Positions 155 to 6,004 of a stretch of DNA of 64,000 bases are shown piece after piece. The stretch covers positions 416,001 through 480,000 of the forward strand of contig CAVTRY010000011.1 of NCBI GenBank assembly GCA_963737265.1. The letters are read 5' to 3'. Both the position numbers and the translations under genes were made by a program. The notes beneath the pieces are model-generated. The model saw nothing but the letters and a program-made list of their open reading frames with translations. It was not told the DNA's origin and did not search any database. This DNA is from an uncultured delta proteobacterium (GTDB lineage: Bacteria > Myxococcota_A > Polyangia > Fen-1088). Each line of letters opens with the position of its first letter. Position 1 is the first letter of the stretch.

Positions 155-949
155 TCAATGTCGAGCTTTCCGTTTCGCCACTTTCGGCTTTTTCGTCACT
201 GCCCTCGATGGCTTCTTGGCTCTCGGTTTCTTGGCCTCGCCCGCGCCAAGATCCAGGCCGAAGATATCGGACAATTCGTCGTCGGCCAGAACCTTGGCGG
301 CCGTCGGGTCTTTCTTCGAAAGCGGCATCCCCTTCCCCGCCTTGGCAATGAGATCCTTCTCGTCGACCTTGCGCAACTTAAATAGCAGCTCCGGACGCTC
401 GTCGAGGCGAGCGCCGATGCCGTAGAGCACGGCGGCGACGTGCTTGCACATCGACGCCCAGTCGGGGCAGCTGCACGTGAGGTGGATCTCGGCGGGCGCG
501 GGGAACAGCCCGGTCTTCTGCCGGCAAATGCGTTCCATGACCCCTTTCGAGAAGCGCCCTTGCAAGAGTTCAACCAGCGAGTCGATGGCGCCGGCACAGT
601 CGGCGCAAATGGCATTCCAACGCGCCTTCGGCACGGCCGATACGTTCACCGCGACGTCGTAGATTTCCGACCCGCTGACGCGCGCCTTGATCTGGCCGGG
701 CGCGATTTGCAGGTCGACCACGGAGCCGTTGCGCACGTAGGTGCGCCCGCGCGGCAGCCGGTTGGAATAGTCGCTGTAGCCTTCGAGGTTGTCGCACCAC
801 GATTTTCCCCAGAAGGTCTTGGCGATGGTCCGGCCTTCGATCGCCACCGGCGACACCGGGTGGCCCTTCTTCGCGAGCTTCGCCATTTCGCGAGCTGCCT
901 TGCGCCGCCGCTCGGCCACGGAAACATAGGGACGCCATTCGTAGAACAT
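155..949 (-). CDS. SWIM zinc finger domain protein (SNF2-associated)
   Basis: CSCPD...CKH SWIM motif; RLPRGRTYVRNG segment typical of the family; starts 3 bp after the helicase stop. Confidence 0.9.
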   Translation of the reverse strand: MFYEWRPYVSVAERRRKAAREMAKLAKKGHPVSPVAIEGRTIAKTFWGKSWCDNLEGYSDYSNRLPRGRTYVRNGSVVDLQIAPGQIKARVSGSEIYDVAVNVSAVPKARWNAICADCAGAIDSLVELLQGRFSKGVMERICRQKTGLFPAPAEIHLTCSCPDWASMCKHVAAVLYGIGARLDERPELLFKLRKVDEKDLIAKAGKGMPLSKKDPTAAKVLADDELSDIFGLDLGAGEAKKPRAKKPSRAVTKKPKVAKRKARH

Positions 950-952
950 GCA

Positions 953-3775
953 TCACTCCTTCATCGCGGCTTTCAGATCCAGGGCCACGAGCCGCAGTAG
1001 CTCGTCGTCTTTCAGCTCGGTCAGGTTCAGCTCGCCACCGCCTTCGAGCAGTTCCTTCGAGAGCTGTTTCTTCGATTCGATGAGCTCGTCGATCTTCTCT
1101 TCGACGGTTCCCCGACACACGAACTTGTGAACCAGCACGTTCTTGGTTTGGCCGATGCGAAAGGCCCGGTCGGTGGCTTGGTTCTCAACGGCTGGGTTCC
1201 ACCAGCGATCGAAGTGCACGACGTGTGACGCCGCGGTGAGGTTCAGCCCCGATCCGCCGGCCTTGAGCGACAGCACGAAGAACGGAACCGATTCGTCCTC
1301 TTGAAAGCGCCGGACCAGATCCTTGCGCTTCTTCACTTCGGTCTCGCCGTGCAAGACCAATCCGGGACGACCGAACACACCGCCCAGGAACGAGGCCAGC
1401 GGCGCCGTCACTTCACGGAATTGGGTGAACACCAGCGCCTTCTCTTGCTTGGCGGCAATGACCTCGGCGAGATCGCGCAACCGCGCCCACTTGCCGCTGT
1501 CGTCCTCGGCCCAAGCTCCGTCGCCCAGCCATTGCGACGGATGATTGCAAATCTGCTTGAAGCGCATGAGGAAGGAGAGGACCAGTCCCTTGCGACGAAT
1601 GCCCTCGGCGTCGTCCAGTTGTTCAGCCAGATCGGTGACTGCCTGCTGATAGAGCGCGGCCTGCTTGCGACTAAGCTGGCAGAAGGCCTTCACCTCGGTC
1701 TTTTCCGGCAGATCCGAGATGACCGTCCGGTCGGTCTTGAGCCGCCGCAAGACGTACGGCCGGACCAGCTCACGCAGGGGACCGTATGGGTTGTGAGGCT
1801 TGTCCGCCAGACTCTTGGTGTAGCTTCCAAACTCCTTGGCCGAGCCGAGCAGCCCGGGATTGCAGAAGTCGAAGATCGACCACAGATCGCCGAGCCGGTT
1901 CTCAATGGGCGTGCCGGTGAGCGCGATACGCGCGTGCGCCACCAGCTTCTTGACCGCCTTGGTTTGCTTGGCGCCGGGATTCTTGATGGCTTGGGCTTCG
2001 TCGAGAATGGCTAGGTTCCACTTGGTCGTCGCAAGCCATGGGATGTGCAAGAGCGATCCATAGCTCGTAATCACCAGATCGACTTCCGCGACTCGCTCGG
2101 GCGACAGCGACGCCAACTCGTCCGCGGACACGGCGGACGTGTGCGCGACGAGCGCCATGAGACCGGGCGCAAAACGAGCGAGCTCATCGGCCCAGTTGGC
2201 GAGCAGCGAGGCCGGCGCCACCAGCAGGCTCGGCCGCGGCTTGCTCTTCGCCGAACCACGCAACACCAACAACAGCGACAAGACCTGGATGGTCTTGCCA
2301 AGCCCCATGTCGTCCGCAAGGCAAGCGCCGAGCCCCAGTCGCGAAAGCAGGTGCAGCCAGCGCACGCCAACCTCTTGGTAGGGGCGGAGCGTGCCGCGTA
2401 GATCGCGGCCCGGATCGATTTTGGCAAGCTCTTCTGGCGAACGCAGCCCCTTGAGCGTCTCGGCGAGCCACGGCCCCGCGACCACGCGCGACCAATCGGG
2501 ATCCGTGCCGGTCGCCGCCCCATCCTTGGTGACGTCCGCGCCCGCAAGCATGCGCATGGCCTCGGCAAACGTAAGCCCATCCTTGGCCGCGAGCCGCTCC
2601 GCCTCCTGGAAATGGGCCATCGTCCGCCGCAGGCGCTCGCTGTCGACTTCAACCCATTGCCCGCGAATGAGTGCGAGCCCGTTGGCGCTGGCCAGAATGT
2701 CCCTCACCTCGCGGGCGCTCAGGCTCTCGCCGTCGAGCGAGACCTCCATGCGAAAATCCAGCAAGGCGTCCTGCCCAAACGAAGCTGCCGCCTTTGTCCC
2801 GACGGTGGCCGTCACCTGTGGGCGGGACGGGCGCCCGGTCCGCCACGTCGCAGGCATGCGCACGACGACACCGGCACGCTCCAGTTGTGGCACGTCACCG
2901 AGAAATTGAAATGCCTCTCGCGGCGACCAGCGCAGCGGGTGGAAGATCTCGCCTGCGTCGACCATCTGTTTCAGCCAGGCACAAGATTCCGCCGCGCGCT
3001 GAACCGGCAGCAAGAGCGAGAGCAGCTTTTCCTTGTTGGCCGCGCCAGCGTAGTCGCGCAACGCCTGCCCGAGCGGCAGGTGCTGGGCTTTGCCGTGCGC
3101 CGACAGCCGGTGCGTGTAGGTCGCAAGAAATGCGAAGGGGGCAGTCTCGTCCTTGCGGTTCTCGGCGAGGTTGAAATGCACCTTGCCCACGACGTTCCAC
3201 GCCGGATGAAGGCGCTTGAGAAACTCCTGGACGGTAGTCTTTGCCTCGGCCAGCTCGACGAAACACGCCGTGCCAATAGCCGCCCAAAGTGAAATCAGGA
3301 CATCGGTCGTCAGGTATTCGGCGCCCGGCATCGCCGGAGCCGCGGCGGCCAGAGAATTGATGTCCTCGGGCGGCGACGGCGGTTCTAGCCGTCGTTGGTC
3401 TGGAAACCCTGGGAGGGTTTCCATGCCCGAGGCCCCTGCCTGCCCCTTTCCCCGCCGCTCGCTTCGCTCGGCCTCGCGCGATGGTTCGCGCCGAGCAAAG
3501 CTCGGCGGCTCCCCACGCGACTCGTCGACGTTAGGTCGGGCACAAAGCGCGGTGACAAATCGGCTGGCGAATTCCCGCCAGTAGGCGAAGACCGGAGGAA
3601 CCACCTCCTCCACCTCGGCCGCGCCAAGCCTCAAGAGTCCATGTCCCGCACCACGAGCAAACGCCCGCTCCATGCGTTCGCCGAATTCGGGAGCGAGCAT
3701 GGGCGCATCCTCCGACGGAGAAAGCAAGAGCCGGCCGTGGGGTGTCAGGCATGTGGTCAGGCGCGGTTCGTTCAA
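953..3775 (-). CDS. SNF2-family (SF2) helicase/ATPase
   Basis: LADDMGLGKT, DEAQ, TGTPIEN, SLKAGGSGLNL and QATDRAFRIGQ motifs. Start moved to TTG at 3775 because the upstream ATG (3898) lies inside a tRNA fragment; start uncertain. Confidence 0.93.
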   Translation of the reverse strand: MNEPRLTTCLTPHGRLLLSPSEDAPMLAPEFGERMERAFARGAGHGLLRLGAAEVEEVVPPVFAYWREFASRFVTALCARPNVDESRGEPPSFARREPSREAERSERRGKGQAGASGMETLPGFPDQRRLEPPSPPEDINSLAAAAPAMPGAEYLTTDVLISLWAAIGTACFVELAEAKTTVQEFLKRLHPAWNVVGKVHFNLAENRKDETAPFAFLATYTHRLSAHGKAQHLPLGQALRDYAGAANKEKLLSLLLPVQRAAESCAWLKQMVDAGEIFHPLRWSPREAFQFLGDVPQLERAGVVVRMPATWRTGRPSRPQVTATVGTKAAASFGQDALLDFRMEVSLDGESLSAREVRDILASANGLALIRGQWVEVDSERLRRTMAHFQEAERLAAKDGLTFAEAMRMLAGADVTKDGAATGTDPDWSRVVAGPWLAETLKGLRSPEELAKIDPGRDLRGTLRPYQEVGVRWLHLLSRLGLGACLADDMGLGKTIQVLSLLLVLRGSAKSKPRPSLLVAPASLLANWADELARFAPGLMALVAHTSAVSADELASLSPERVAEVDLVITSYGSLLHIPWLATTKWNLAILDEAQAIKNPGAKQTKAVKKLVAHARIALTGTPIENRLGDLWSIFDFCNPGLLGSAKEFGSYTKSLADKPHNPYGPLRELVRPYVLRRLKTDRTVISDLPEKTEVKAFCQLSRKQAALYQQAVTDLAEQLDDAEGIRRKGLVLSFLMRFKQICNHPSQWLGDGAWAEDDSGKWARLRDLAEVIAAKQEKALVFTQFREVTAPLASFLGGVFGRPGLVLHGETEVKKRKDLVRRFQEDESVPFFVLSLKAGGSGLNLTAASHVVHFDRWWNPAVENQATDRAFRIGQTKNVLVHKFVCRGTVEEKIDELIESKKQLSKELLEGGGELNLTELKDDELLRLVALDLKAAMKE
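3374..3516. repeat. Multi-hairpin palindromic (REP/RPE-like) element inside the helicase CDS
   Basis: Three perfect stems: CGACGGC/GCCGTCG (3374-3394), TGGAAACCCT-GGG-AGGGTTTCCA (3401-3423), CGCCGAGC-AAA-GCTCGGCG (3489-3507); encodes a low-complexity peptide; ends approximate. Confidence 0.6.
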
Positions 3776-3826
3776 GGCGACAGCTTCTCTCCGGATCTCC
3801 GCAGATCTTTCATACTGCTTCTCGGT

Positions 3827-3861
3827 ACCAAGTTCATACTTCCCGCCTCTCCGAACTTGGT
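3827..3861. repeat. 9-bp inverted repeat with 17-bp spacer beside the tRNA fragment
   Basis: ACCAAGTTC (3827-3835) / GAACTTGGT (3853-3861). Confidence 0.6.
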
Positions 3862-3870
3862 GAACACAGT

Positions 3871-3904
3871 AGTCTGGCGCGTCTACCAGTTCCGCCATCC
3901 CCGC
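3871..3904 (-). tRNA. 5' half of tRNA-Leu (fragment; probable att site)
   Basis: GCGGGGA-TG-GCGGAACTGGTAGACGC-G-CCAGA-CT: acceptor 5' strand, Leu-type D arm and anticodon stem 5' strand, then non-tRNA sequence; no 3' half seen in the window. Confidence 0.8.
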
Positions 3905-3973
3905 GCAATCATTTCAGCAGGTCAACCGCATGAACCGGTATCGGCATGAAGGACTCGTCCCGAGCACGTCACC

Positions 3974-4270
3974 ATGATCAGCACTCTGGCGGGACGGCGA
4001 ACGCTGCCGATTTCCGCGGAGCTTTTGGCGGAGCACGCGCTGGCCCTGCCGGGAGGCTGGGACTGGCCCGTCAGGCGGGCGGCGTTCGAGGCGATCTTGC
4101 GTCGGCTCTCCTCGGCACGCGCGCAGGAGTTGACAGTCGTGAAATCGCCGCGGGTCGGGCCATTCGGCGACTACACCTTGCGCAGCCGCCAGACCGGGGG
4201 CGATCTTCGCTACGCCATTCGCCTGTATTCGGTGGCCCCCCTGCAAGCACGCTGCAACTGTCCGGACTTC
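3974..4270 (+). pseudogene. N-terminal fragment of a SWIM zinc finger protein
   Basis: Protein-like sequence up to ...LQARCNCPDF, then no C-x-H ligands and an Arg-rich, non-protein-like read-through to 4654. Confidence 0.6.
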
Positions 4271-4681
4271 CCCGGGCTACTCGACAGGGGCCATTCGCGT
4301 CGTCACCGGCGGTGGCGTCGGCTCCAGCAGCGGGAATCCCTGCCAGGCAAGCTGCGTCTGCACCGGCGCCGGTGGCGCTGGCGCCGCCTTCGCTTCTTCG
4401 TCCCCGCGCTCACCTTTTCCAGCCTCCGGCTCCGTGCCCTCCCGTGCCCGCCGTGTTTGCTTTCCGCCGCTCCCCTCGTCGCGCGGGCTCCCCTCCGAGC
4501 CATCTTCCGCCCCAACAGGCTCGTCGGCGGTCGATACGGATCCGGCACGAGCAGGGACGCAAGCCCGGTGTTTCCCGTACTGAGAAACCAGCGCAGCGGC
4601 GCGTCCAAGTACGGCGTATGGTTTGGACTGGCGCGATTTGCCGCTCGGCGATAGGGTGCCGGGCTCGGGGTGCGGAAGCCC

Positions 4682-6004
4682 ATGACGGCCGACAATACGC
4701 GAGCGGATCCGGATCGAGTGGGGACATCAAGCGATGCCACCAGGGAAGAGGTGCGCGGACGCCGTGCGAGGACAAGCAACCTCGCGTCCGGCGAGGCCCG
4801 TGCGCGCGATGGGGATGGAAGGATCGTTCCCGCGATTGACGATGCCGCGGCAATTCCCTGCGCCGTGCTTGCGCCTGGCACGAAGGTTGGACGCTACCAA
4901 GTCGTGAAGCTGGTCGGCCAGGGCGGGATGGGGACAGTCTACGAGGCGCACGATGCGCGGCTGAATCGCAAGGTTGCGCTGAAAATCCTGGCCGATAGTC
5001 TCAAGGGTAAACGCAAGGCGGCCAAGCGGTTTTCCATCGAAGCGCAGGCCGCCGCGCGGCTCGTGCATCCCAACGTGGTGGGCATTTTTGATTTCGACGT
5101 GGAATGCGAGACGCCCTACATGGCCATGGAATTCTTGCATGGAGAAACCCTGGCATCGGTCATCGCCTGCGGCGGGTTGGCGGTCGAGCGCTTGGCGGAC
5201 ATCATGCTGGCGGTGTGTGCAGGCGTTCACGCCGCGCACGGGGCGGGCATCGTTCATCGCGACCTCAAGCCCAGCAATATCTTCCTGTGCCCGGACTGGA
5301 AGGGCAACGAGACCGCCCGCGTGCTCGATTTCGGCATCTCGAAGGTGGGCGGCGTTTCCAGCAGTGGGCTGACCCAAACCGGAGACATCATCGGGACGTC
5401 CCAGTATCTTTCGCCCGAGCAGGCCGCAGGCGCTCGCAACGTCAGCCCGTTTAGCGACCAGTATTCCCTCGGCGTCGTGATGTACGAATGCGTGACTCAG
5501 CGAACACCGCAACAGGGTCAGCCGCTCTACCGACTCCTTCGCAATGTCTCGAACGGGGAGCACACCCTGCCGCACTTGCTTCGTGCTGACTTGCCCGCCG
5601 GGTTCGAGACCATCATCGAAACCGCCATGCGTGTACGGCCGAAGGAGCGCTTTCCCTCGGTGTACGAAATGGGACAGGCGTTGTGTCCGTTCGCCTCGAT
5701 CGAGGGACGCCGCCAATTCGGCGACTTTTACCATCGCACGGACTCCTCGCCGATGGATTCGGCAGCGCTTGGCGAGATGGGCGGTTCGCGTCTTGCCCCG
5801 AGCACTACCGCGACCCGGCGCCTGCCGACCGAGCCACCACACACCTGGCAGCATCGCACGACGCGGACGTCTGCTCGCCCGGCTGGGCGAACGCGTTCCG
5901 TGCCGCTCGGGATCCGGTTGCGCAAGCCTCTTTTCGTGCTTTCCATTTTCGTCCTTGCGGCGATCGCCGCCTTGCTCACGGTGGGGCTTTCTCGCTCACC
6001 CTGA
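4682..6004 (+). CDS. Hanks-type Ser/Thr protein kinase with C-terminal TM segment
   Basis: GQGGMGTV, VALK, HRDLKPSN, DFG and SPE motifs; hydrophobic C-terminus. Confidence 0.93.
   Translation: MTADNTRADPDRVGTSSDATREEVRGRRARTSNLASGEARARDGDGRIVPAIDDAAAIPCAVLAPGTKVGRYQVVKLVGQGGMGTVYEAHDARLNRKVALKILADSLKGKRKAAKRFSIEAQAAARLVHPNVVGIFDFDVECETPYMAMEFLHGETLASVIACGGLAVERLADIMLAVCAGVHAAHGAGIVHRDLKPSNIFLCPDWKGNETARVLDFGISKVGGVSSSGLTQTGDIIGTSQYLSPEQAAGARNVSPFSDQYSLGVVMYECVTQRTPQQGQPLYRLLRNVSNGEHTLPHLLRADLPAGFETIIETAMRVRPKERFPSVYEMGQALCPFASIEGRRQFGDFYHRTDSSPMDSAALGEMGGSRLAPSTTATRRLPTEPPHTWQHRTTRTSARPAGRTRSVPLGIRLRKPLFVLSIFVLAAIAALLTVGLSRSP

Follow-up and report, generated by a model that had tools for sequence, protein, structure and literature searches.

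What left the front half of a leucine tRNA gene standing without its rear half, and was a mobile element responsible? The question arises in the window analysed here, a stretch of 64,000 nucleotides (G000:C11:416001-480000), in which a displaced 5' fragment of tRNA-Leu(UAG), recognised by sequence match, occupies 3871..3904 on the minus strand. The fragment comprises nt 1-34 and ends after CT, the first two bases of an anticodon loop that in this tRNA runs from nt 33 to nt 39, so that the last five of the seven loop bases are absent. We consider it reasonably probable that the window holds the decayed junction of a tyrosine-integrase element, one that would have recombined within the anticodon loop in reversed orientation and supplied the tRNA gene with a new front half.

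The fragment and its genomic setting

The first-pass annotation, made from the letters of the window alone, had described a minus-strand tRNA-Leu 5' half ending after the loop CT, and comparison with other copies confirms it as nt 1-34 at positions 3904-3871. ARAGORN predicts no tRNA gene in the window, and an Rfam scan of 3000-5000 returned nothing meaningful (a single chance match, E 0.6). The cognate tRNA-Leu that the annotation presupposed does exist: when the fragment was compared with the genome, it matched the one intact tRNA-Leu(UAG) of G000 (C23:61471-61553) at 33/34 positions (E 2.4e-9), the difference being G vs A at nt 6. Most relatives have G at nt 6 as the fragment does, the resident copy has A6, and the copy in relative G010 matches the fragment at 34/34. 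The annotation had also pointed to the left of the window for a partner and an integrase, and there it failed: no tRNA piece, 3' half or integrase lies on that side, C11 carries no match to PF00589 (tyrosine integrase) below 884,536, which puts the nearest one ~465 kb off, and the intact tRNA is on C23. No 3' exon or partner beginning at nt 35 was found in G000. The only other piece of tRNA-Leu(UAG) in this genome is a 3' fragment far from the gene (C22:352915-352953, L007), in which nt 21-32 are apparently joined to nt 61-83.

On C23, a type IIG restriction-modification gene is followed by a PF00589 remnant of 86-90 aa that points into the intact tRNA on the same strand and ends 23 nt upstream of it, and the 371 nt upstream of the tRNA are 95% identical to the end of a complete 7-kb element in G010. 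A two-gene block that follows tRNA-Leu(UAG) in G003, G004, G007 and G009, and which we take to be pgeF-rluD, lies 48.7 kb downstream of the C23 tRNA in the expected orientation, while the block that precedes this tRNA in relatives, presumably pyrG-like, is on C12 in G000. Three separate pieces of a G010-like stack occur in G000 at 93-95% identity, namely a helicase stump on C11, the toxin-antitoxin flank downstream of that helicase on C12 and the integrase tail on C23; no shared repeat able to explain the split between C11 and C23 was found. Two repeats were seen near these pieces. One, dispersed over many other G000 contigs in dozens of near-identical copies, is at least 160 bp long, contains inverted repeats and starts exactly at the 3' end of the intact tRNA-Leu (C23:61553); the other, a 171-bp sequence, occurs in three copies at 100% identity (C12:360609, 365428, 368499) beside the start of the helicase's downstream flank.

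Within the window, the fragment is bordered by an SNF2-family helicase gene (953..3775, minus strand; PF00176, PF12419, PF00271) and its partner, a SWIM zinc-finger gene (155..949, minus strand), both likely island cargo. The first-pass view that the open reading frame beginning 'MAELVDAPD' reads through the tRNA as a shadow is borne out: SNF2 homologues at five relative loci align from residue 37-42 onwards (one weakly also from residue 23), so that the TTG at 3775, which stands behind GGAG, is the likely start. Junctions with tRNA fragments can thus create false starts, the SNF2 gene here beginning 41 codons later. On the other side, at 3974..4271 (plus strand), a 5' stump, homologous over ~285 bp, remains of an SNF2-like helicase gene (885 aa) which in G001, G002, G008, G010 and the metagenome locus L123 stands upstream of tRNA-Leu(UAG). 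Counterparts of the SNF2 and SWIM genes with 94% and 92% amino-acid identity are found in G005, in the same relative orientation and 3 kb upstream of a restored tRNA with an integrase remnant. Both the 885-aa helicase and the SNF2-SWIM pair also occur at several unrelated places in relatives, and on C11 the pair belongs to a region (C11:406,700-419,775) in which there are also an HTH-peptidase M78 gene and a type II methylase, together with broken type III restriction-modification pieces. Beside the break of the helicase stump, window positions 4301-4387 (87 bp) are a copy, at 91%, of C11:413672-413758, a segment of the broken type III methylase gene. Positions 3400-3525 are a hairpin-rich, repeat-like insert within the SNF2 reading frame; some 120-140 bp have no counterpart in relatives at this place, where contigs from metagenomes have loose ends and skips.

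Front-replacing elements at tRNA-Leu(UAG) in relatives

The suggestion that the fragment marks an integration junction, left by an element carrying the 5' portion of the tRNA, gains support from relatives in which the whole layout can be seen. At least 12 of 88 family genomes hold 5' fragments of tRNA-Leu(UAG) (G004, G010, G013, G044, G063, G065, G069, G077, G082, G092, G097 and G101, among the matches listed), and in six of them (G004, G010, G044, G069, G077, G097) an intact copy follows 3.8-19 kb downstream on the same contig. All 12 fragments run to nt 39-44 (that of G077 to nt 42, with one loop change). A whole 7-kb element is seen in G010: it starts with a 1-40 fragment and cargo, continues with an HTH_17 (excisionase-like) gene and a full-length integrase (377 aa; PF00589, E 1.6e-16), and ends with the intact tRNA. 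Fragments of the 3' type account for 15 rows among the matches listed, and the three that were inspected (G002, G043, G092) start at nt 31-33; because 5' fragments end at nt 39-44 and 3' fragments start at nt 31-33, both orientations use the same 7-nt loop. The tally at tRNA-Leu(UAG) is 13 rows for 5' events vs 15 for 3' events at the anticodon site among the matches listed, a count from which G068 and G046 (contig ends), G102:C9 (another leucine tRNA) and four 3'-type rows at contig starts were left out. An integrase or integrase tail on the same strand ends within 170 nt upstream of 12 of 25 intact copies, which were chosen loci rather than a random sample and included, among the 12, three that had supplied the queries. 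G008 and G002 were considered as pristine empty sites and rejected, as their upstream DNA matches the integrase tail.

These elements fall into two kinds, which we label type A and type B for the purposes of this analysis. Type B is represented in G000 (C23), G001, G010, G044, G097 and G101, its full-length integrases being 52-63% identical to that of G010, and type A integrases (PF00589) are found in G005 (a remnant), G043 and G092; BLASTP detects no similarity between the two types at E 0.01. Full-length genes are available for type A in G092 (L101:8390-9577) and for type B in G010 (L020:13387-14520). Compared with viral and genome collections, the G010 integrase has relatives that are distant (25-36% over long matches). 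In one type A subgroup, tandem TGGTRCCAA motifs precede the restored tRNA and the same motif recurs 64-66 nt after the stranded fragment. A scan of metagenomes with a pattern requiring the full loop and the motif recovered 19 type A junctions, with the restored tRNA 3.8-5.8 kb further on in five of the 19, and the pattern had no match in viral contigs. The two annotated genome elements of the type A motif kind (G004, G069) carry AbiE and TOTE genes, and no integrase was detected inside them; this tRNA hosts stacked relics as well as elements of 4-6 kb that have arms only and no integrase. Stacking is visible in G010, G069, L123 and L124. Collapsed modules of ~120-170 nt, in which a degenerate front half of the tRNA is followed by the two arms, fused at the tandem motif, and then by a new front half, were seen at L020:7430-7600 (G010), L104:8350-8521 (G069) and L123. 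The type A integrases of G078 (L115:12763-13928; with an internal stop) and G092 (L101:8390-9660) are 44% identical, lie on opposite sides of the same tRNA and have mirror-image arm motifs, which likely reflects an orientation switch within one clade.

The metagenome locus L123 comes closest to the window. Its helicase is 91% identical at the amino-acid level, and besides a type A flank and a fragment of nt 1-40 the locus retains a type A arm that is intact; judged from its sequence, it is an undamaged version of the window's layout.

The codons for the C-terminus of the type B integrase contain a motif shaped like a -35 box and a -10 box with 17 nt between them (TTGTTT ... CACTAT). It lies 113 nt before tRNA-Leu in G000, G001 and G010, and 9-26 nt before it in G002, G003, G004, G007, G008 and G009, which have lost the remainder of the integrase (in G009 a tblastn match to the integrase tail persists). 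The motif is thus within 113 nt of the tRNA in nine of ten genus genomes whose locus was inspected and absent in G005; the loci upstream of tRNA-Leu are L003:17300-17470 and L018, L019, L021, L022, L024, L025 and L026. We offer only tentatively, and with more doubt than confidence, the suggestion that tRNA-Leu(UAG) of this genus may now run on a putative promoter within the tail of an invading integrase gene. If that were true, repeated front-replacing invasions and subsequent damage to the loop, of the kind seen in the window, would lock elements in and make an essential gene dependent on domesticated mobile DNA.

Five tRNAs of G000 have an integrase tail upstream: the leucine tRNA, tRNA-Lys(CUU), tRNA-Arg(UCG), tRNA-Arg(UCU) and tRNA-Arg(CCU). 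At tRNA-Lys(CUU) on C7 (L005), a 1-41 fragment (169080-169120) lies 10 kb upstream of the intact gene (179227-179300), an integrase remnant points into the gene, and both copies have element-type upstream flanks. At tRNA-Arg(UCG) (C2:54867-54820, 53035-52961, 45107-45065; L006), a 5' fragment damaged right after the loop CT lies 1.8 kb upstream, accompanied by a frameshifted integrase remnant and with a 3' island behind. Integrase tails likewise point into the 5' ends of tRNA-Arg(UCU) (C22:9422-9874, L036) and tRNA-Arg(CCU) (C17:18353-18025).

A probable decayed arm and the possible origin of the junction

DNA resembling that of type A elements lies on both sides of the fragment. Upstream of the fragment, at 3905..3925 (minus strand), alignment and a position weight matrix (PWM) point to a flank of the kind that type A elements supply, with the core TGAAATnATT; its alignment with the flank in G005, G010, G069 and metagenome loci marks it as a decayed form. 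A PWM built from six flanks scores 590 of the genome's 13.1 million positions as high as this one (P 4.5e-5), and the motif itself is found 14 times in the genome. Beyond the fragment, 3821..3870 (minus strand) resembles the outer part of a type A attachment arm. A 50-column PWM from 10 non-redundant arms gives 15 of 13.1 million positions a score as high as the window's (P 1.1e-6), although the arm set was partly gathered using the arm motif itself, the 39 columns outside the motif yield only P = 0.0035, and the window's 8.4 bits compare with 25-65 for true arms left out in turn. In local alignment to the arms the window does better than 3,997 of 4,000 random 75-mers, a test that takes in ~20 nt also aligning with the SNF2 upstream region of G005. 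By contrast, nhmmer with two arm profiles (one from 16 arms) did not detect the downstream flank of the window, and BLAST of 3790-3880 against the 88 relatives gave no match. The conserved arm motif TTGGTRCCAAG is present with one mismatch at 3821..3831 (minus strand), its only match in the window, where 0.07 would be expected; it is also found in G004, G063, G065, G069 and 19 metagenome loci, and by analogy with lambda integrase it may be an arm-type integrase binding site. We read the stretch beside the fragment as a decayed arm, putatively derived from an element.

The spacing of this motif bears on where the fragment ends. In 13 arms the distance from loop to site is 64-66 nt, so that the motif would be expected 69-71 nt past nt 34; in the window it stands at 39 nt, and ~30-32 nt therefore appear to be missing. 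The loss appears to comprise the five loop bases and the inner arm. The first-pass annotation had placed the crossover right after the CT, which does not agree with relatives: all 12 of their fragments reach nt 39-44 and keep 7/7 loop bases, against 2/7 in the window, and the three inspected 3' fragments begin at nt 31-33. Because every relative's fragment retains the whole loop, the end at nt 34 is read as later damage, likely a secondary loss after the junction had formed.

The annotation had further reported an inverted repeat and a direct repeat as possible recombinase sites. Both are where it placed them: a perfect 9-bp inverted repeat with a 17-nt spacer at 3827-3835 / 3853-3861, and an 8-bp direct repeat at 3809-3816 / 3833-3840. 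Dinucleotide shuffles (5,000) of the 68-nt stretch 3803-3870 give an inverted repeat of at least 9 bp in 0.2% of cases, and real genomic 68-mers (20,000) in 0.9%; the figures are 1.0% and 5.9% for a direct repeat of at least 8 bp and 0% and 0.1% for the two jointly, in a test that was post hoc and concerns two repeats that overlap each other. Their proposed role finds no support, as none of 13 distinct intact arms has an inverted repeat longer than 6 bp. Of the two inverted-repeat copies, the one more distant from the tRNA (3827-3835) alone overlaps the near-palindromic arm motif; nothing in intact arms corresponds to the other (3853-3861). Some direct repeat of 8-9 bp is present in five of the 13 intact arms, so that the window's is unremarkable; one of its copies lies in the arm relic and the other, 3809-3816, in a segment alignable to the DNA upstream of SNF2 in G005, and a function for it is unsupported. 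No terminator or promoter match was found in 3700-4100, which means that the inverted repeat is no terminator, and the folding of the repeat region is not unusual (z-scores -0.9 to -1.4). Nor was a second copy of 3803-3870, as might mark the end of an insertion sequence or repeat, found in G000 or in the 88 family genomes (E 0.01).

A history that would account for these observations begins with a circular element carrying its upstream flank and tRNA nt 1-39 beside the end of its integrase gene, the order found at the junctions of G010, G044, G097 and others. Crossover within the 7-nt loop, by the chemistry known from lambda-type integrases, would strand the old front half upstream and rebuild a whole tRNA downstream, the element likely supplying a promoter at the far end. 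Elements would then stack at the site, and the half stranded here may already have had an element-type upstream flank. A later deletion of ~30-32 nt would have taken the five loop bases and the inner arm and left the site unusable, and rearrangements may have split the stack over C11, C12 and C23. What speaks for this reading, by comparison of sequences, is the integrase remnant pointing into the cognate tRNA, the layouts in relatives, L123, the flank scores, the G005 gene pair and the three G010-like pieces; against it stand the location of fragment and intact tRNA on different contigs without an integrase between them, the nhmmer and BLAST negatives on the downstream flank, and the mismatch at nt 6. 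Because the flank of the intact copy is of type B and the arm in the window of type A, at least one intermediate junction is absent from the assembly.

An alternative history has a junction of this type arising in a related organism and reaching G000 within a mobile defence block made up of helicase stump, fragment, SNF2-SWIM pair and methylases, without ever having been at the resident tRNA-Leu locus. The G6 of the fragment, shared with most relatives and not with the resident A6, fits such an import, as do the placement of the ancestral upstream neighbours (the pyrG block) on C12 rather than beside the fragment, the scattered distribution of the helicase and the SNF2-SWIM pair in relatives, and the rating of G000 as 7.6% contaminated. 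Yet the C23 tail, the C12 toxin-antitoxin flank and the C11 stump match a single G010 locus at 93-95%, which break-up in place explains more simply, and we regard import as a serious but rather unlikely alternative. Far less likely again is that assembly or binning falsely connected the start of a tRNA with unrelated DNA. The region is full of broken genes, and in X1, the only sequencing run with most of the stretch and possibly the source sample, the junction of 3871 and 3870 is bridged by four letters only and 3808-3866 is uncovered; X1 nevertheless agrees without difference over 3867-4248 and 3556-3807, and a decayed homologue of the right arm would not be expected beside the fragment by chance joining. 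Neither an adequate bridge of the junction nor an excision or circle joint was found in contigs of X1, X2, X3 and X13, whose cover is sparse.

That the crossover took place right after the CT with the two repeats as recombinase sites, or that an unrelated transposon end cut the gene, is improbable. The repeats exceed chance, and the tRNA-Arg 5' fragment on C2 is damaged at the same point, but the whole loop in 12/12 relatives' fragments and the 0/13 intact arms with an inverted repeat above 6 bp leave the version with crossover at the CT and repeats as sites largely refuted, and the stretch is single-copy in G000 and absent from the 88 relatives, with no partner from nt 35 onward in G000. It is scarcely credible that the locus is a functional split or intron-containing tRNA gene, or encodes a small RNA made of half tRNA and hairpin: the 5' part does stop at the U preceding the anticodon, where some group I introns reside, but no 3' exon lies nearby, Rfam, folding z-scores (-0.9 to -1.4) and the search of 3700-4100 for promoter or terminator are all negative, and an intact gene exists.

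Comparison with known islands

The closest catalogued counterparts are the islands of Islander (Hudson, Lau and Williams) that have a displaced 5' fragment and an anticodon-centred site; 5' fragments are listed for 159 of 3,919 islands, and tandem arrays number 125 (PMC4383910). Recombination at the 5'-distal side is called considerably less frequent in another paper, which cites Zhao and Williams 2002 (PMC6563490). Like the Islander class as outlined there, the elements described here combine a 5' fragment upstream of a regenerated tRNA, a tyrosine integrase, crossover in the anticodon loop and tandem arrays (PMC4383910). The window differs in that its two ends are on different contigs, its integrase is a remnant and five loop bases are lost, and for these reasons the Islander filters would not call it. 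It has the tRNA end fragment from nt 1; it lacks an intact tRNA 2-200 kb downstream in the same orientation and on the same replicon, an integrase inside the island and a full loop, the first of which is present in G004, G010, G044, G069, G077 and G097. The window is a relic of the 5'-fragment island class, not a callable island. Programs that find tRNAs overlook junctions of this kind, as do island callers for which the two ends must lie on a single contig.

At tRNA-Leu(UAG) in this family, 5' events look about as common as anticodon-site 3' events among the matches listed, far above the ~4% share that the Islander figures give. Elements with two integrase types, in part stacked, integrase-less and defence-carrying, thus enter a single tRNA from its front with about the same frequency as from its rear, and the set offers a natural series in which to ask how an integrase comes to reverse the orientation of its target and whether mobile DNA provides an essential tRNA with its promoter. 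Ordinary 3'-replacing anticodon-site islands use the same 7-nt loop, their 3' fragments beginning at nt 31-33 (G002, G043, G092), but they have the integrase downstream of the tRNA, and the side displaced here is the opposite one. A group I intron or split tRNA would show a matching 3' exon and intron structure, neither of which is found in the window.

Zhao and Williams, in 2002 (J Bacteriol 184:859), reportedly described an element in reversed orientation that carries the front of the tRNA gene and its promoter, not the rear. The present elements likewise carry the front of the tRNA gene; they differ in belonging to another host group, in employing two dissimilar integrase types at one tRNA, and in including stacked relics and arm-only elements (4-6 kb) that lack an integrase. 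Literature searches turned up no paper on elements of this family, and none of the titles listed was evidently about front-replacing elements; the Islander and TIGER databases may already contain some elements of the family. The layout itself is rare but catalogued, and what the present loci add to it is the pair of integrase types, the stacking and the promoter-like motif in integrase tails.
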